DNA from: Planctomycetota bacterium
GTDB lineage: Bacteria > Planctomycetota > GCA-002687715 > DRQF01
Length of the DNA: 12,300 nucleotides
Assembly: GCA_027001995.1 (NCBI GenBank)
Contig: JALTLO010000143.1
Coordinates: forward strand, 1 to 12,300
Reading direction: 5' to 3'
The translations under genes were made by a program, and so were the position numbers. The notes beneath the pieces were generated by a model. It ran no database searches and was not told where the DNA came from. It saw only the letters and a list, made by a program, of their open reading frames with translations. The first letter of the stretch is position 1. Each line of letters opens with the position of its first letter. This document shows positions 641 to 12,300 of this stretch, in pieces.

Positions 641-1831
641 ATGCCAAAACATGATCCGGAGCTCCTCGAGTGGCGCGCCCAATACCCCATTCTCAAAACA
701 ACCACCTACATGAATTCTAACTCTCTGGGTGCCATGCCTCGTGGTGTTTATCTCGAAATGCAAGAATTTGCCGACATGTGGGCCACGAGAGGAGTTCGGG
801 CTTGGCATGAAAGCTGGATCGACCTGGTCGGCAAAGTTGCCAACATCTATGCTGATGTCTTGGGGGCGCCCCATGACTCAGTTTCGATGCACCAAAACGT
901 GGCCATTGCCCAGTGGATCTTAACATCCTGTTTCGATTTCGATGGCCCTCGCAACAAAGTGGTCTATACCGGGATGAACTTTCCCAGCGTGATGTACCAC
1001 TACGAAGAATTGAAGCGGCGAGGTGCAAATGTGGTCACGATCGAAAGTGATGATGGTATTTCCATCGACCTAAACCGACTCTTAGAGGCCATCGACGAAA
1101 CCACACTCTTGGTACCCGTTTCTCATGTCCTTTTTCGCAGTGCCTACGTCCAAGATGCGAAAGCCATCATCGATCGCGCTCATGAAGTGGGCGCGAAGGT
1201 CATTCTTGACACTTACCAAAGCGCCGGTTGCGTACCCGTCAATCTAAAAGAATGGAACGTCGATTTCTGCGTTGGCGGCTCGGTCAAGTGGCTTTGTGGC
1301 GGCCCTGGGGCTGGCTACCTCTATGTTCGCCCGGACTTAGCACAAGAACTAAAGCCCGTCTGCACCGGCTGGTTCGCCCACGAAAAACCATTCGAATTCG
1401 TTCCCGGTGCCATCGAATGGGCTGGAGCAAAAAACCGCTTCAACAACGGTACGCCCCACATACCTGCACTTCACGCCGCCAGGACTGGCGTTCACATTGT
1501 GCGGGAAATCGGCGTCGAGCGCATTCGCGAAAACTCTCTGGCACTCACCGACCGCATGATCGAAAGAGCCGAAGGCTACGGATTCACTTTGACGGTGGCC
1601 CGGGACCACGCCCACCGAGGTGGTACCATCGCCTTTGACTTGCCCCACGCCAAGCAAGTTGCCGCCGAAATGTTGGAGCGGGAATTCATCATTGATTGGC
1701 GCCCCAACGCCGGTATCCGCGTGTCGCCCCACTTCTACACCACCCCAGAAGAATGCGACAGCACTGTGGACGTCATCAAAGAAATTCTCGACACCGATGC
1801 TTGGCAAAAGCACGGTGAGGATCTTTACTGA
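641..1831 (+). CDS. kynU: Kynureninase-like PLP enzyme (aminotransferase class V)
   Basis: N-terminal YMNSNSLG, NFPS, LVPVSHVLFRS, DTYQSAG, PLP-lysine motif GGSVKWLCGGPG, GWFAH, RGG and DWRP..GIRVSPHFY. Directly coupled to a KynB-type cyclase gene. Confidence 0.85.
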   Translation: MPKHDPELLEWRAQYPILKTTTYMNSNSLGAMPRGVYLEMQEFADMWATRGVRAWHESWIDLVGKVANIYADVLGAPHDSVSMHQNVAIAQWILTSCFDFDGPRNKVVYTGMNFPSVMYHYEELKRRGANVVTIESDDGISIDLNRLLEAIDETTLLVPVSHVLFRSAYVQDAKAIIDRAHEVGAKVILDTYQSAGCVPVNLKEWNVDFCVGGSVKWLCGGPGAGYLYVRPDLAQELKPVCTGWFAHEKPFEFVPGAIEWAGAKNRFNNGTPHIPALHAARTGVHIVREIGVERIRENSLALTDRMIERAEGYGFTLTVARDHAHRGGTIAFDLPHAKQVAAEMLEREFIIDWRPNAGIRVSPHFYTTPEECDSTVDVIKEILDTDAWQKHGEDLY

Positions 1832-2454
1832 TGAAGATCATCGACATCAGTCAAACCGTTGACAGCAACACCGTCGTCTGGCCCCAAGACACGCCATTTA
1901 CCGCCGAGTGGGTCATGAAAATCCGAGACGGGGATTCTTGCAACGTCTCCACCATGAGAATGAGTGTTCACTGTGGCACCCACGCTGACGCCCCCTATCA
2001 CTTCCATGAAGAAGGGGCGAAATCAGATGAGGTGCCCATCGAATCCTTCATCGGCCCATGCTTGGTGGTCGCGATTGACAGCGAAGATGCCATCCACGAG
2101 TCTGATCTCCAAGATATCGACCTCAACAAATACAGCCGTATCCTGTTTCGCACCAAACGACCCTGCACCGCTACCACATGGCGAGACGACTTTGCCTACA
2201 TGAGTGAAGATGCCGCCGAGATCTTGGCGGCGAGTTCCGTCAAGCTCATTGGCATCGATACCCCGAGCATGGATCCCCTGTCCTCTAAAACACTGACGGC
2301 TCACAAGATCATGAGCCAAGCTGGTCTCATCTGGATAGAGAATTTGGAGCTCGGCCACGTAGAGCCGGGAGAGTACGAACTCATTGCCTTGCCCCTAAAA
2401 TTAGGCGCATCGGACGCCGCTCCTGTCCGCGCCATATTGAGAGAAATCAAATGA
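1831..2454 (+). CDS. kynB: Kynurenine formamidase (metal-dependent cyclase family)
   Basis: Signature HCGTHADAPYH (HxGTHxDxPxH), IDISQ, VWPQDTPF, GIDTPSMDP, AH and ENL..L..V.PG.YELIALPLKL...DAAPVRAILR. The ATG overlaps the kynU stop (TGATG at 1829-1833). Confidence 0.9.
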   Translation: MKIIDISQTVDSNTVVWPQDTPFTAEWVMKIRDGDSCNVSTMRMSVHCGTHADAPYHFHEEGAKSDEVPIESFIGPCLVVAIDSEDAIHESDLQDIDLNKYSRILFRTKRPCTATTWRDDFAYMSEDAAEILAASSVKLIGIDTPSMDPLSSKTLTAHKIMSQAGLIWIENLELGHVEPGEYELIALPLKLGASDAAPVRAILREIK

Positions 2455-2849
2455 CTATGGAAATCATCAACCCAAAGAATTGGAAGAAACCCATTGGCTA
2501 CTCCAACGCCATTAAGACCGATCGCAGTCAAATGGTTTTCTTAGGAGGGCAAGTCGCCTTCGACTCCAAGTTTAATGTCATTGGCAAGGGTGACTTGGTT
2601 GCCCAGTTCGAACAAGTCATGAAGAACCTCAAGACGGTCATGGAAGAAGCTGGAGGCACCCTGAAGGACGTCGTCAAGCTCACAATCTTCGTCCAAGACA
2701 AGGATGACTATCTCGCCAACGCCAAACCCATTGGCGTCTCCTACCGTTGGCATTTCGGCGATCACTATCCGGCCATGACTTTGGTAGAGATCTCCCGTTT
2801 CTACGAAGAGGATGTCCTCATCGAGATTGAAGGCATTGCCGTGCTCTAA
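2451..2849 (+). CDS. Rid (YjgF/YER057c/UK114) family protein lacking the catalytic Arg
   Basis: PIGYSNA, FLGGQV, Q..Q...NL...MEEAGG...DVVKLTIF, YPAMTLVEIS and IEIEGIAV. ATGA overlap with the kynB stop at 2451-2454. Confidence 0.9.
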   Translation: MTMEIINPKNWKKPIGYSNAIKTDRSQMVFLGGQVAFDSKFNVIGKGDLVAQFEQVMKNLKTVMEEAGGTLKDVVKLTIFVQDKDDYLANAKPIGVSYRWHFGDHYPAMTLVEISRFYEEDVLIEIEGIAVL

Positions 2850-2944
2850 GACCTGAAATGACCGCAAAATGGGAGTTGCTCGGCGATTCCCTAGGCATCT
2901 GCTATTGTCGGAGCTTCCACCTCAAGTCATTGGCAGAGCCGAAA

Positions 2945-4717
2945 ATGAATTTAAACCCATGGGCCCTTGGTGCTTTCATCCTGAGCTTCGTCGTCGCTTC
3001 TTGGCTGGGAGCCCAGTTGCCCACCCCTTATCCCCAAGGATCAGGGCCCACGCCAAACCCAGAACCCGCCCGCGCGTCTTTGTTTACCACCCGGTTCCGC
3101 CACAAAGACACAGGTGTTCTTTATGCCCCTGGGACGCAGGTTCATCGGGCAGGCGATGTCAACAACGACGGCATCCCCGACTTCATCGTTTCCATGCCAC
3201 CCATCGGCGCCAATTGGAACGGGCCAGCGTCTCTGAATACGGGGACTGTATTTCTTCGCTCCGGTGTCGATGGGGCCATCATTCATCAGTAATTCGGATC
3301 GGTTTACAACACATCACAATACAGCGACTTTGGCCATGCGGCTTGTGGCATGGGCGATGTCAATGGCGATGGCCATGACGATGTCGCCGTCAGTGTCGTA
3401 GCAATTCCCAACGGTACAATCGGTGGTTTCGACGGCGCTGTTCAAGTCTATTCAGGTTTCGATGGCTCAGCTTTGGCAACCATCGTGGGAACTCCCGGGG
3501 CCAGCACCGGCGTCGACTTGGCTAATTTGGGAGACCTCAATGGGGACGGCATCGCGGAACTGGCCATTGCAGAGCGTTTCAGTGTCGGTACAGCCTTCGA
3601 TGGCCATGTCTTGATCTACTCCGGGGCAGATTGGTCTTTGTTCCGCACCATTGATGACCCAGTGGGCACAATGTTGGTGGCGTCTCTTGCCAACGCCTTG
3701 GATGTGGATGGCGATGGCATCGATGACATCTTGATTGGTCAACCTCTTTATGGAGGCCCTGTCACCTCTGGTCGTGCCCAAGTATTCTCCGGTTCCGATG
3801 GTTCTCTCATTCATGAGTTCACCGGTTCCAACCAAGGTCTCTTGGGTTCAAGAGTGGCTGGCCTGGGTGACATCAACAACGACGGCTTTGCCGATGTGCT
3901 GATTGCCGAACCTGACTTTGCCGTTTCAACGGCTTCCGCTGGGGTCCAAAAAGCCGGACGGGCACGGGTCTATTCTGGGATCGATGGGGCCCCACTCTTT
4001 TCCTTCGACAACGTCGCCTTCAACGGGAAAATAGCGTCCATGGTTGCCTGCGTTGGTGACGTCAATGGCGACGGGGTCAACGACTTAGCCTTTGATCATT
4101 TGCAACCAGCATTCCATCACAGCAACGCTGCCCTGCTCATTTACTCCGGTGCCGACGGCTCTCTTATTTCGGTGATTGACGGCCATGACGTTTCAGAACC
4201 AAAACACATGGACATCGCAGGAATCGGGGATGTGAATGGTGATGGATTTGGCGATGTGGCCACCAGCTCAATTCTCTTTGACAACGATCCGAACACAGAA
4301 AACGACGGCGAGACAAGGCTCTTCTTAGGAGGAACACCACCGACTGAAAAGATCTACTCATCCTCCGGAACTCCCCCTGCTCTCGACTTGGAATGGTGGC
4401 CTCGACAAAGCAACCCCAACCACTTCATCGGCAACTACCGCAGTACTGGTGCCACGCCCGGAGCCTTAGGACTGATCGTAGCCAGCCTAGCGTCCATCGA
4501 CCTCCCGATCTTAGGAGTTGATCTCTTGGTGGCCATCGACTCAATCAATTTGTTGACCTTGGGGACTCTAGGAGCCAACGCCGCTGGAGAGTTCACTGTT
4601 GGTAATCTATCCAGATCCTACCCACCATTAGCGGGCCAGGAAATTTACCTTCAGTTCTTTGAAACGACTCCGACGGTCCAAGCATCCAACGCCATCAAAA
4701 TGATTCTACTACCCTGA
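2945..4717 (+). pseudogene. Secreted FG-GAP (integrin-alpha-like) 7-blade beta-propeller protein with a C-terminal domain, interrupted by a single in-frame TAA at 3290-3292
   Basis: ORFs 2858..3292 and 3350..4717 share a frame, and the gap reads openly after the stop (HQ*FGSVYNTSQYSDFGHAACGMGDV). Signal peptide from ATG 2945 (MNLNPWALGAFILSFVVASWLGA/QLP). One D-x-[ND]-x-DG repeat lies before the stop and six after it. Confidence 0.8.
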
Positions 4718-6062: not shown

Positions 6063-6595
6063 TACTCATAAGAATATGTGAAGACTTTGCATAAGGATGG
6101 CGGTCGTCTCTGGGCGGCAGCACATCGATGATAGGCGTCGGATTGAGGAAATTAGCTATGAACAAGTTCATTCAAATCGTCACAGGCTGTGTAGCACTTA
6201 CGCTCGGGCTGACGCTCAACGCACAACTCCCCCTTGCTCCCTCCGGGACATACGGGGGGCCCTTGCCACAGCCTGCTCCTTACTCTCAATTTACGACCAG
6301 TTTCTGGAACCACGGTACGGGTGTCCTTTACGACAGGCTCACGACGGTAGAAGCTGGATTCGACGTCAACGCCGATGTAACCCCTGACTTCATCGTTGCC
6401 TGTCCCGGCATTGGCGCCAACTGGAGTGGCTCTTCCACCTACAGCGTCGGCCGCGTCGAGGTTCGATCCGGGACCAATGGTTCAATCATTCATCAATTCG
6501 TCAGTGCTAACCATGACAAATTCGGGACAGTCGCTTGCGGCATGGGAGACGTCAACGGGGACGGACGTGACGCCCCCTCCTACTTGGTACTCATA
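6060..6595 (+). repeat. 11-bp direct repeat TGGTACTCATA at 6060-6070 and 6585-6595
   Basis: Two exact copies read from the sequence. They bracket the truncated FG-GAP fragment. Confidence 0.6.
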
Positions 6596-6607
6596 CCATT
6601 GGCTTGA
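6158..6607 (+). pseudogene. Truncated paralog of the FG-GAP protein (signal peptide plus about 1.5 repeats)
   Basis: GAGGA at 6145-6149 precedes ATG 6158. Signal peptide ...LTLNA/QLP. Colinear with 2945-3380 (FTT.F....TGVLY; DVN.D..PDFIV..P.IGANW.G; RSG..G.IIHQF; ACGMGDVNGDG). Similarity ends abruptly near 6571, followed by 11 unrelated residues and TGA. Confidence 0.75.
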
Positions 6608-9064: not shown

Positions 9065-12000
9065 CTACTGAGTCTTAACGCGAACAAGAACCATCCCCCC
9101 CTTGTAGAGATCATTGATCAACGCCGTCGCGTATCCTTGTGGCAGGAACCATGCAATGGGGAAGACGGTGATCATGCGATAGTCCACAAGGGCAACACGC
9201 ACATACAAGAACTTGTTTATGGCATCGTAGTGCCACGCTAAGCCAAATGGAGAGGTCATAAGTTGAGCAGCAGTGGGTGCCGTGGTCGGTGGCAGCAATG
9301 GGGTCGGAGGTAGAATAATGCCAGGTGTACTACCAGCGGTGAGGACGTTAACTGCAGGGTTGTAGAAAGGCACTGGAGCTGCTTCCGCCGGATAGGATGG
9401 CACATCACCCAAGCTCGGTGGCGATGACGGAGGTAAGAAACCTGGGAACGTTAGGCAATCTAGACGTTGATGGACGACAAACTCAACGTGATGCGGCAAA
9501 GGCGCAGTTGGATTGAAGGTTGCATTGGCAACAGGAATCTTAAGAGTGATCCAATCTCCTGGTTTGCCGAACCTCACTGCGATTCGAAAGTCTGCAAACG
9601 ATATTGGCAGACCGCCTGCAGTTGGCCGAGGCGGCACGACCTCGTAGACGTGCCCCTGCTTCACATTGAAGGGATAGACATTAGAAAGCTGGGCCGAAAG
9701 AACATTCTCGCCATGATGGCTCTGATAGCTCGCAGTTGATTGTGCGGGATCACGCTTAAGTTCCATGTAGGCGGCCACCGGCGAAGCCCCTGAATAGCCA
9801 AAGCTAAGTAACTCATCATAGAACAGAATCTGAATAAGGCCACGTCCAGGTTCGTTGGGCAAAGCTTGTGGTAGATCCGGAACGATCCAAGCATTCCAAT
9901 CGGCTATCCAGATTGGTGCGTCCAAGACTGGCGGGGAGGCTGGTGTCTTGCTCGCCCCATCTGGAAGCATGATCGATTGGTCGGCAACGATGTATGCCGC
10001 TGTTACACTTTGTCCCACACCATTTGGCGGCGTCGGAAACCCCGAGATGCTTCCATCTGGATCCCACACCGTTACCAAATTCGTGGCGTTGAATTTTGGG
10101 CTCGTCGTGGCGGCACGAAACCACAATTTGTTGGCATTGGTAAAAGTGGTGCTCATCACCGTATTCCTGGGGTCGATTGCAAAAGCCAAGTCGATCAACC
10201 GATTTACAATGGCGGCCCCGTGCCGATCGCCCGACGTAGGCAAAGCGGAATCCTGAAAATTAATGAACTCCGCGTCTTCTACGACTACCAGCCCGTCATA
10301 AAGTTCAAGACCAAATACGCCAGGGTTGGCAAGTTCGGGGCTAATATTGAGGCTTGAAGGCACAAGACTTCGTTGAACCAAAAGTTCCTCCGGGTCATCC
10401 CAGCCAGCGGTGCTACCTACGTTGAGTGAGTCGCCGATCGCAAGGACGTCACGAAATGTTGTTGTCCCTTCACCATCAACGAGCGGATAAGCAGTTGTTG
10501 CTGCGTAGATCGCAACTTGGCAATCGGCGATCCGCAGGCCATCCCAAGTGAGGTGGCCAAAAGTCCGCGAAAAGACTCCGTACCTTTGGCATTTGTAGGC
10601 AGAAAAATCGGAGATTACGAATGATGAGTCAACCGGGTCGGAACCAAACAAATATGGCCTGTGATCCGCAAAGTAGCCATGCAACTTGTTTGAATGAGAG
10701 ACATTCCCATTAAAAGACCACTTGGTTGTCGGTGAACTTACAACTTTTGGATCTGGAATTGGTAGCAATGAACTATCGATGCCATGGACGGAAAAACTCT
10801 CATGGGGATTCTCGATCCAGAATCCCGTTCCTTCACAACCGGCAGAGATATTGTTGTCAAAGGTCCCATCGATCGTGGAAATCCAGAAGGTCGCGGGGTT
10901 GTTGTCTTGAGGAAAAAAGTGTGGTCCAGCCGCCGCAGTCACGTTTGCGCTCAACGTCGAAATCCCAATGTTTCCGGTTAGCGTGCAACCATGTTCGAGT
11001 CCATCCACGAGGTAATAAGCTCGCCCCAAGGTGTGATAAGAGACGTTGTTTGTGACTTCCACCGATTCGGTCTGATGAACCACAATAGATTTGTTGAAGT
11101 TGTGATGAAAAGAACAAGAATCTACAACGCCAAATTTATCCCCCAGGTCGTTGGCCATTCTCCCGGAATAGTGAAAATGAAGGGGGTAGTCGCCAGGTAT
11201 CGCCCAGTTTCCGAGTCCTCGAAACTCGACCCAATGCAATTGCAACGTCGGGGCAGGTGTGGCAGGACTGTGGCTGATTGGCGGTGACGGAGGAGGCGGA
11301 ACTGCCCCACCGATCGTTTCGCCGATCTGTACCTTCCCACCAAATTGTGCGACAGTAGGATTATCAGGTCCCTTAATGACAACGTTTCGGCTGAGCAAGG
11401 CGACCTCCGCCGCAACAGCCATCGATTTGCCAGTTGTTCCACCATCCAGAGCACCAACAAAATGTTGATAAACTGCTGGACGATCTATCCCATAGTTGGT
11501 GACCATCGGCACGCCACCCGCTGAAGAAACACTGGTAATCGTAAATTCTTCCGCTTGTTTAGTGTCGAAGTCTGTCGATGCAATGACAATCCGATCTCCA
11601 ACTTGCCAACCAGGATTCCCTTCCACCAACACTTCTACATCCAGCTCGTTTACTGTCTGAGATGCTCGTCCATGAGGAATCTTACCGCCTTGATCTCCCC
11701 AGATATGGAGAGCCCCACCGGATTCGACAAGCAGTTGCCCAGTGACTGGAATTCTCGCAGGGTTCTCGGCAATCTCCAATTCTAGAGTGCCAGAAAAAGG
11801 AAGTGATTGACTGCCAATTCTCAAGATCCCGCCGGGCCTCACATGAAGCAGATGAAAACATAGCCTCAGAACATTAGGGGAAATAATGAGCGTTCCATCG
11901 ACAAGGACCGCATCGAGGCATTTCACGGGTTTGTCCAACGTAATTGTATGACCTGCAAGGATGTGGGCCGTATCCATACTTGTATCAGGCACACCGATTG

Positions 12001-12226
12001 CTGGAGGGACCGGTACCCAAGATGCATTGTTACTCCAGACACCGTTGACAGTGGCGGACACATGAGTTGCAGCGGGGATTTGTCCTATGAGCGGAACAGA
12101 AAACAGGAAGAATACGAGACACGAGACACGAGACACGAGACACGAGACACGCTGTAAGAACAAATTCGGATCGACATCAAGTCCTCCCCTGTAGAGTAAT
12201 TCCCGAGCGTTAGATATGGGAGACAA
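9065..12226 (-). CDS. Secreted G8-domain plus parallel beta-helix protein (CEMIP/TMEM2/fibrocystin-like); true start uncertain
   Basis: G8 pattern GVWSNNASW...VP...AHILAGHTITLD...GGILRIGS...PF...GGALHIWG, then GWQVGDRIVIASTDF...AEE, AEVALLSRNVVIKG, VEFRGLG, YPLHFH, SFHHNFNKSIVVHQT, YYLVDGLE, ATFWI, AGCEGTGFW, F.GNVSHSN and a C-terminal WHYD..NKFLYVR. The 12226 start is a TTG. Confidence 0.8.
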   Translation of the reverse strand: MSPISNARELLYRGGLDVDPNLFLQRVSCLVSRVSCLVFFLFSVPLIGQIPAATHVSATVNGVWSNNASWVPVPPAIGVPDTSMDTAHILAGHTITLDKPVKCLDAVLVDGTLIISPNVLRLCFHLLHVRPGGILRIGSQSLPFSGTLELEIAENPARIPVTGQLLVESGGALHIWGDQGGKIPHGRASQTVNELDVEVLVEGNPGWQVGDRIVIASTDFDTKQAEEFTITSVSSAGGVPMVTNYGIDRPAVYQHFVGALDGGTTGKSMAVAAEVALLSRNVVIKGPDNPTVAQFGGKVQIGETIGGAVPPPPSPPISHSPATPAPTLQLHWVEFRGLGNWAIPGDYPLHFHYSGRMANDLGDKFGVVDSCSFHHNFNKSIVVHQTESVEVTNNVSYHTLGRAYYLVDGLEHGCTLTGNIGISTLSANVTAAAGPHFFPQDNNPATFWISTIDGTFDNNISAGCEGTGFWIENPHESFSVHGIDSSLLPIPDPKVVSSPTTKWSFNGNVSHSNKLHGYFADHRPYLFGSDPVDSSFVISDFSAYKCQRYGVFSRTFGHLTWDGLRIADCQVAIYAATTAYPLVDGEGTTTFRDVLAIGDSLNVGSTAGWDDPEELLVQRSLVPSSLNISPELANPGVFGLELYDGLVVVEDAEFINFQDSALPTSGDRHGAAIVNRLIDLAFAIDPRNTVMSTTFTNANKLWFRAATTSPKFNATNLVTVWDPDGSISGFPTPPNGVGQSVTAAYIVADQSIMLPDGASKTPASPPVLDAPIWIADWNAWIVPDLPQALPNEPGRGLIQILFYDELLSFGYSGASPVAAYMELKRDPAQSTASYQSHHGENVLSAQLSNVYPFNVKQGHVYEVVPPRPTAGGLPISFADFRIAVRFGKPGDWITLKIPVANATFNPTAPLPHHVEFVVHQRLDCLTFPGFLPPSSPPSLGDVPSYPAEAAPVPFYNPAVNVLTAGSTPGIILPPTPLLPPTTAPTAAQLMTSPFGLAWHYDAINKFLYVRVALVDYRMITVFPIAWFLPQGYATALINDLYKGGMVLVRVKTQ
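12114..12151 (-). repeat. Heptanucleotide simple sequence repeat (CGTGTCT)5CGT, read as (ACGAGAC)5ACG on +, within the signal-peptide coding region
   Basis: Five perfect units at 12114, 12121, 12128, 12135 and 12142, plus a 3-nt partial unit. Confidence 0.95.
12183..12190 (-). promoter_or_regulatory. Strong Shine-Dalgarno-like AGGGGAGG, 5 nt upstream of ATG 12177
   Basis: The minus strand reads AGGGGAGG-ACTTG-ATG-TCG-ATC-CGA. Confidence 0.6.
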
Positions 12227-12300
12227 AGTCCCTCAACGTTGGACGCCTACTGAAGAATAACTCGGTAGCTAAGCCTATGTCAAACGAAAATCGGCGACAT

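Follow-up and report, generated by a model that had tools for sequence, protein, structure and literature searches.

The repeat-containing locus and its setting

The window analysed here is the whole of contig C143 (12,300 nt) from an assembly (G000) of 5.22 Mb in 204 contigs, which is 92% complete and has a GC content of 51.7%. No 16S gene was found in the assembly, and its genome matches (2 planctomycete cytochrome C and 4 DUF1501) were consistent with the planctomycete label. An Atlas search with the kynureninase pointed to no clear taxon. The sequencing runs that contain the window were hydrothermal vent metagenomes wherever labelled, and run X5, from another study, held pieces about 99% alike to it. 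Scans of the JGI metagenomes gave no matches, and the named-genome scan returned 4 loci only, at 23-25% identity. The features of the window are collected in Table 1.

Table 1. Genes and sequence features of the window (contig C143)
Feature	Position	Strand	Remark
Kynureninase-like aminotransferase, cyclase (kynurenine formamidase-like) and RidA-family genes in a row	641..2849	+	probably tryptophan breakdown
FG-GAP gene	2858..4717	+	split by one in-frame TAA (3290-3292); frame resumes beyond the stop
Truncated FG-GAP paralogue	6128..6607	+	reads through the place of the TAA; stops after first repeat
Laminin G-like predicted secreted protein, 715 aa	6884..9031	-	33 nt downstream of the G8 gene
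Mature G8/CEMIP beta-helix protein, 1005 aa, no stops	9065..12082	-	Pfam, sequence and fold matches
Hydrophobic and cleavage part of predicted Sec signal peptide	12083..12113	-	in the long frame; crude heuristic
Heptamer array (CGTGTCT)5 + CGT, putative switch	12114..12151	-	in frame at 0, 3, 6, 9 units
ATG 12177 and 30-aa truncated product of the 5-unit allele	12085..12177	-	stop TAG 12087-12085
Shine-Dalgarno sequence AGGGGAGG	12183..12190	-	5-nt spacer to ATG; core retained in X2 allele
Alternative start TTG 12226 with GAGG	12224..12234	-	in frame only at 2, 5, 8 units
Sigma-70-like promoter match (TTGACA, 18 nt, TATTCT; 10/12)	12254..12283	-	motif scan

On the minus strand, we found a heptamer array of 5.43 perfect copies (100% matches), which begins 26 nt after ATG 12177 and separates this codon and its strong Shine-Dalgarno (SD) sequence from a 1015-codon frame of G8/CEMIP type. 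ATG 12177 is offset by 2 from the long frame. It joins this frame at 0, 3, 6 or 9 units to give 1025-1046 aa, and at other unit numbers it gives products of 23-53 aa. The initial annotation had described the SD sequence with its spacer, the out-of-frame ATG 12177, the 30-aa peptide at five units, and the in-frame TTG 12226 with GAGG 4 nt upstream and a 48-aa leader, and all of these were confirmed from the sequence; its statement that 3 or 6 units restore the frame also held, with 0 and 9 to be added. In two third-order Markov simulations (5.2 Mb each), no array of at least 3 copies arose for 7-, 8-, 10- or 11-nt units, and the longest simulated 7-mer run was 17-18 nt, compared with 38 nt in the real array. 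Because the simulated genomes held no comparable array, the C143 array is not a product of chance. No second run of at least 2 copies of its heptamer was found elsewhere in the assembly.

The promoter match upstream is weak on its own, since such sites are no commoner than in shuffled sequence (3 in 6.3 kb versus 4.4 expected). In run X1 the assembly graph splits in two exactly at the contig end (12271-12300), some 120 nt ahead of the start; both branches have lower depth (7.7 and 9.9), and strain variation next to the promoter is a possible cause.

The protein encoded behind the array

Pfam searches of the long frame matched G8 (PF10162, E 2.7e-7; about 11992-11765) and the CEMIP beta-helix (PF24606, E 4e-35; about 11248-10676), both above the cut-off, and this order of domains is that of a CEMIP/TMEM2-like protein. 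The best match was TMEM2 (PDB 8c6i) both by sequence (E 5.7e-22) and by fold (E 8.6e-36, TM 0.64); polysaccharide lyases and glycoside hydrolases matched much less well. The structure model was confident over most of its length (mean pLDDT 79.3, from a 49-row alignment). The mature protein resembles TMEM2 in its G8 domain and parallel beta-helix, at 16% structural identity and with strong sequence alignment only over residues 153-475. TMEM2 is the only relative with a solved structure. In the available text of PMC10206443, no hyaluronidase activity was found for TMEM2, for which this activity is disputed, and its active site is unassigned, and therefore such an activity is not transferable to the protein described here. 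The most likely role of the protein is to bind or to cleave a polysaccharide. Its signal peptide is predicted by a crude heuristic to be cut before the Gln at 12082. Homologues of the Laminin G-like neighbour, 46-49% identical, also lie behind paralogous G8 genes on contigs C11, C123 and C202.

Similar arrays behind start codons in the genome

We listed the non-triplet arrays of the assembly with units of 4-14 nt and at least 3 copies (n = 26), and found that eight of them lie 5-33 nt behind an SD-backed ATG and ahead of a long frame. The same placement test was passed by 572 of 20,000 random sites (Fisher p = 5e-7), by 0 of 18 triplet-unit arrays and by 8 of 390 shorter non-triplet arrays, the last being the background rate. 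All eight passing arrays have 7-11-nt units, and arrays with such units number 14 in total. Similar tracts in other signal peptides, which the initial annotation had thought worth looking for, amount to seven more arrays of like design. The eight loci belong to four families of predicted secreted proteins and carry units of 7, 8 or 11 nt: C143 (7-mer, 5.43 copies), C131 (7-mer, 4.57), the G8 paralogues C11, C204 and C7 (one common 8-mer; 9.88, 9.12 and 4.12), C159 (8-mer, 4.75), C123 (8-mer, 4.62) and C68 (11-mer, 3.73). Contigs C143, C123 and C204 are joined end to end by 127-nt overlaps, and these three loci therefore share one region. Beyond the C143 contig end, C123 carries on with the remnant of a transposase and with a duplicate of the 3' part of its own repeat-gated gene.

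All eight loci are out of frame as assembled. The offset is 2 at three loci and 1 at five; one added unit restores the frame at five loci, and the loss of one or gain of two at the other three. With the crude heuristic, a signal-peptide-like start appeared at a frame-restoring unit number in 8/8 loci, and in a first-40-nt test 7/8 had such a start, running up to a Gln, at one or two of the unit numbers that restore the frame; the heuristic also picked C102 and four doubtful low-copy matches. In-frame genes with a signal peptide by crude criteria (n = 284) had at most 2.14 copies of any 7-11-mer. The same kind of heuristic gives Gln as the first residue of the mature chain for all repeat-gated genes.

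No Pfam match was found for the products of C68, C159, C123 and C131. The genes on C68, C159 and C123 belong to two multi-copy families (11 and 5 matches in G000) of predicted secreted proteins, one cysteine-rich of about 450-500 aa and one of about 1100 aa; the cysteine-rich family has only seven database relatives, and an Atlas search with the C159 family gave no match above 0.78. Seven inspected family paralogues have ordinary in-frame signal peptides, and in two more the start was not reached. The paralogues on C102 and C187 have fewer than two copies of an 8-mer and are out of frame.

Several other candidates were considered. A fixed programmed ribosomal frameshift was rejected on the mixed offsets. 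In S. gallolyticus pil1, the repeat reportedly lies in a separate leader ORF before a terminator, and the main gene has its own start; we found no terminator-like site near 12085-12190, and at C143, C131 and C159 no in-frame start with an SD sequence follows the array, which does not fit leader attenuation of this type. Four 10-mer arrays were rejected as switches, being part of a dispersed intergenic element that contains 3-5 copies of the 10-mer (C141:124953, C14:1906, C64:3781 and C75:4785); a remnant beside the C141 element resembles an IS66 gene, and at C75 a 3-copy and a 1-copy version flank a scaffold gap. Two further arrays are intergenic, an 8-mer of 5.1 copies about 165 nt upstream of a secreted gene (C68:34791-34831) and a 5-mer of 22 copies (C159:4573-4683), and these might tune promoters. 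Loss of mismatch repair was unsupported, a full-length MutS frame being present in the genome.

Repeat tracts in related genomes

G8 homologues were found in 4 of 8 genomes of the family, and 14 further genomes from the order had none. By targeted searches of G001-G008, we examined 27 homologue 5' ends, of which 12 were in frame without a repeat and 12 carried a tract (11 out of frame, 1 in frame); one more was out of frame without a clean repeat (G001 C339), and two were unreadable. The tracts were 8-mers (G001 C488, G005 C4), a 10-mer (G008 C428), an 11-mer of fewer than two copies (G001 C46), a 4-mer (G001 C457), and poly-C, poly-G or CT runs (G003 and G007); the one in frame was a poly-C9 (G007 C234). 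Two of the relatives' tracts occupy sites orthologous to those of G000 arrays, and their units are related to the G000 units but not the same. One pair is TCAAGCTC on G000 C123 and TCAAGGAC on G001 C488, written in register, where the proteins are 46% identical, and 11-mers occur in both G000 C68 and G001 C46. The look at related genomes proposed in the initial annotation was thus answered by tracts in family relatives, two of which share the site but not the unit of a G000 array. In the closest G8 orthologue (G001 C2, 47%), the signal peptide is ordinary and there is no repeat. In blind samples of about 1.8 Mb, we found one locus, already known, in 897 kb of G005 and none in 800 kb of G002 or 130 kb of G001, indicating that such loci are sparse and that G002 may have none. 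A G8 homologue in G004 (L009/L004, C2:286146-286155) shows a frame change near residue 220.

Differences in unit number between samples

Four of the 15 listed runs were examined, all as contigs; X1 and X2 cover the array, and X4 and X5 do not. In X2, from another study (depth 7), one contig crosses the site and is 28 nt (4 units) shorter than the window, with 11 substitutions in 407 aligned nt and a flank about 97% identical. The X2 allele has one unit left (10 nt of repeat with one substitution inside), and when modelled on the window it retains ATG 12177 and is out of frame. An allele of one mutated unit would slip rarely.

In X1, which differs from the window by 1 substitution in 3.1 kb (at 10862), the contigs are interrupted at the array, where pieces of 31 nt (depth 85) and 36 nt (depth 53) stand between flanks of depth 25.2 and 30.2. 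We read these pieces as a de Bruijn loop with k = 31, the probable value given the piece lengths and the Logan assembly method. The loop would be passed 1.8-2.1 times, giving a mean of about 6.2-6.5 units, while a pure 5-unit allele predicts a depth of about 28 and would give a depth of 53 with a Poisson chance of 4e-4 to 9e-7. Flank and loop add up to about 85 with balanced inflow, so no other locus is needed to feed the loop. These depths are a strong hint that the X1 population is either mixed in unit number or made up mostly of in-frame 6-unit alleles; they are a hint and no unit count, because depth is no share of cells and the Poisson figure understates the noise.

The C11 paralogue has 9.88 copies in two contigs and 3 units fewer in another assembly, with the protein otherwise identical (P0002 versus P0123), a difference that keeps the frame; the unit count of the C204 paralogue was unchanged in a second assembly. 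P0001, 99% identical to the window protein and from another assembly, begins at a GTG inside the array and so has at least 3 units. Its 10 residue differences from the window protein fall in one short stretch (about 9470-9500; P0001 residues near 870), which suggests local exchange or a variable loop. In cluster look-ups for the C68, C159 and C123 genes, P0125 and P0130 begin inside or behind the array, and no readable alternative alleles were found. Between near-identical backgrounds, then, unit number differs by 4 fewer in X2, a depth pointing to more than 5 in X1, and 3 fewer at the C11 paralogue. At C143 the OFF allele was read directly, and the ON allele is indicated by X1 k-mer depth only, from contigs. 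The initial annotation had called the locus apparently OFF, a description that applies to the 5-unit assembly only, since the k-mer depths of X1 suit a mean near 6.

The X1 depths can also be read as a sign that the assembly miscounts a fixed, in-frame 6-unit allele and that OFF, here and at other loci, is a short-read artefact. They fit 6.43 copies almost exactly (expected about 56 and 84; seen 53 and 85), X1 is possibly the sample behind the assembly, 149 nt separate the array from the contig end, and 10 of the 15 long arrays have lengths of 31-41 nt, close to widely used k values. We consider this explanation improbable. The 127-nt contig overlaps suggest that assembly ended at k = 127, which would bridge arrays of 38-45 nt; X1 need not be the source, as it differs from the window at 10862; and the X2 allele, with its internal substitution in 10 nt of repeat, cannot be a collapsed loop. 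The correction to be made also differs by locus, and even a miscount at C143 would leave the concentration of arrays behind start codons to be explained.

Choice of start codon

A second explanation holds that the gene is ON as assembled, with translation from TTG 12226 and the repeat as a length-variable part of the 48-aa leader that is selected for frame. This start has a GAGG and a promoter-like site ahead of it, and the 1053-aa form that it gives is the NCBI record. At C11 and C204 the long frame is likewise open upstream, and the frame-keeping difference of the two C11 alleles would agree with it. However, each of the four X2 codon changes in the TTG 12226 frame is non-synonymous and X2 lacks TTG 12163, compared with 28 synonymous and 7 non-synonymous among the 35 listed substitutions of the ORF body. 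When the same upstream region is read for ATG 12177, the SD core and the ATG are retained and 3 of the 5 upstream substitutions fall in the six-base SD-ATG spacer. TTG 12226 is moreover out of frame at the unit number of X2. In homologues without a repeat, the start lies about 18-28 residues upstream of the conserved Gln, and at C7, C159, C123, C68 and C131 the long frame opens 0-24 codons before the array end and has no SD-backed start. The X2 substitution pattern and the start positions of the repeat-free homologues make ATG 12177 the likely start, and TTG 12226 is probably not the main one. The initial annotation had kept TTG 12226 as a possible start: its sequence features are present, and the X2 codon changes weaken its case. 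We regard a gene that is ON from TTG 12226 as quite improbable.

Selection on the genes behind the arrays

No stops were found in the frames of 450-1087 codons behind the arrays. For three paralogue pairs in which all members are assembled OFF, dN/dS was 0.056, 0.125 and 0.098 at dS 1.0-1.6, which is purifying selection and indicates that the OFF-assembled paralogues have long been expressed and selected. These results bear on a third explanation, that the arrays are chance duplications in dispensable secreted genes, now decaying and permanently OFF. Nearly all assembled alleles are indeed OFF, including low-copy ones (X2; C102 with 1.75 copies; C187 with 1.88 copies before an 88-codon fragment); G001 C339 is OFF without a clean repeat; and the window also has an FG-GAP gene broken by an in-frame stop. 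Nevertheless, the stop-free frames, the dN/dS of about 0.1 between paralogues with a common unit, and the arrays themselves, which are perfect, confined to 5' ends and persistent at orthologous sites in two species, argue against decay, and we hold it to be highly improbable.

A proposed phase-variation switch

The array is a perfect non-triplet repeat in a 5' coding region, and with ATG 12177 taken as the start its unit number decides access to an intact frame. The product is predicted to be secreted and appears to be under selection, judging from the signal-peptide heuristic, the synonymous bias and the paralogue dN/dS. We therefore favour, with good confidence, the reading that the heptamer array is a slipped-strand phase-variation switch of the opa/neuO type. 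The initial annotation had seen a contingency locus here, and this reading gained support from the length differences between samples and from the tracts in the genome and its relatives.

In the proposed mechanism, slipped-strand mispairing in replication would add or remove whole 7-nt units, frequently and reversibly within a clone. ATG 12177, as the presumed start, would thereby move in and out of frame with the predicted secreted beta-helix protein, two of the three unit-number classes giving a truncated product. The escape of 7-11-nt loops from mismatch repair is established and is touched on in the available part of PMC4060949. ON alleles would be exported via Sec, with a signal peptide that grows by 7 residues per 3 units, and at several loci the repeat would encode part of the hydrophobic core of the signal peptide. 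In this way a population might keep each protein on display in a shifting fraction of its cells, be it the smaller or the larger part; the most plausible benefit would be hedging against phage or grazers, or altered attachment.

The arrays with units of at least 4 nt and at least 3.7 copies behind an SD-backed ATG were assembled out of frame in 12 of 12 cases; chance alone would give (2/3)^12 = 0.008, for loci that are not independent. Selection against display, non-independent loci or assembly bias are possible causes of the excess. A broader and tentative idea, which may well prove wrong, is that this vent lineage keeps a set of large secreted proteins that are OFF by default. In each of several unrelated multi-copy families, some members would be constitutively in frame, and others would carry independently evolved 7-11-nt repeats that write part of the export signal, are renewed across species by unit turnover and are selected to be out of frame in most cells, with ON states only in rare cells or niches.

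At issue is whether free-living or biofilm bacteria hedge their surface as pathogens do. A 5.2-Mb environmental genome with eight putative long-unit switches, in families mostly without a Pfam match, offers a direct test of such hedging, and the C143 locus is easily scored in existing vent reads. The arrays also call for caution with annotation, as database entries (P0001, P0002, P0124, P0130) have wrong starts or lost signal peptides.

Comparison with known systems

Repeat-driven phase variation is described in the available text of PMC11475388 as typical of small-genome pathogens, and reports on 6-9-nt repeats are called rare in that of PMC4692102. A literature search, which covered few subscription journals, found no paper on repeat-driven phase variation in planctomycetes. 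The available part of PMC3960869 describes CTCTT coding repeats in the leader peptide of Neisseria opa and a switching rate of about 1e-3. As far as that account goes, the likeness to opa is close, in that a non-triplet repeat in the signal-peptide coding region sets the frame and paralogues each have their own tract. The loci described here differ in that units are 7, 8, 10 or 11 nt long and vary between gene families, the products are large predicted secreted beta-rich proteins rather than Opa barrels, and the host is an uncultured environmental bacterium.

In E. coli K1, neuO has an AAGACTC heptamer in its 5' coding region with 3-53 units (mode 20) and is OFF in 65.6% of genomes, according to the accessible part of PMC13001214. 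As described there, neuO shares with C143 the 7-nt unit and the ON state when the unit number fits the frame; slippage has been measured in neuO, which is thus a precedent for heptamer switching and for phage as a selective force. It differs in being a single prophage gene for a capsule O-acetyltransferase, and its repeat is not described in that text as an export signal. The five units of C143 are few by comparison, and the long arrays described here are OFF in 12 of 12 cases versus 65.6% of genomes for neuO. In Beggiatoaceae, Cyanobacteria and Xanthomonas, long intergenic heptamer repeats are reported in the available text of PMC4679880 and PMC4692102, and these are like the C143 array in that they are perfect, have heptamer units, lie close to start codons and come from environmental bacteria. 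Within those accounts, they consist of one motif at many mostly intergenic sites without a tie to surface genes, whereas the arrays described here have family-specific units, lie inside coding sequence and break the frame.
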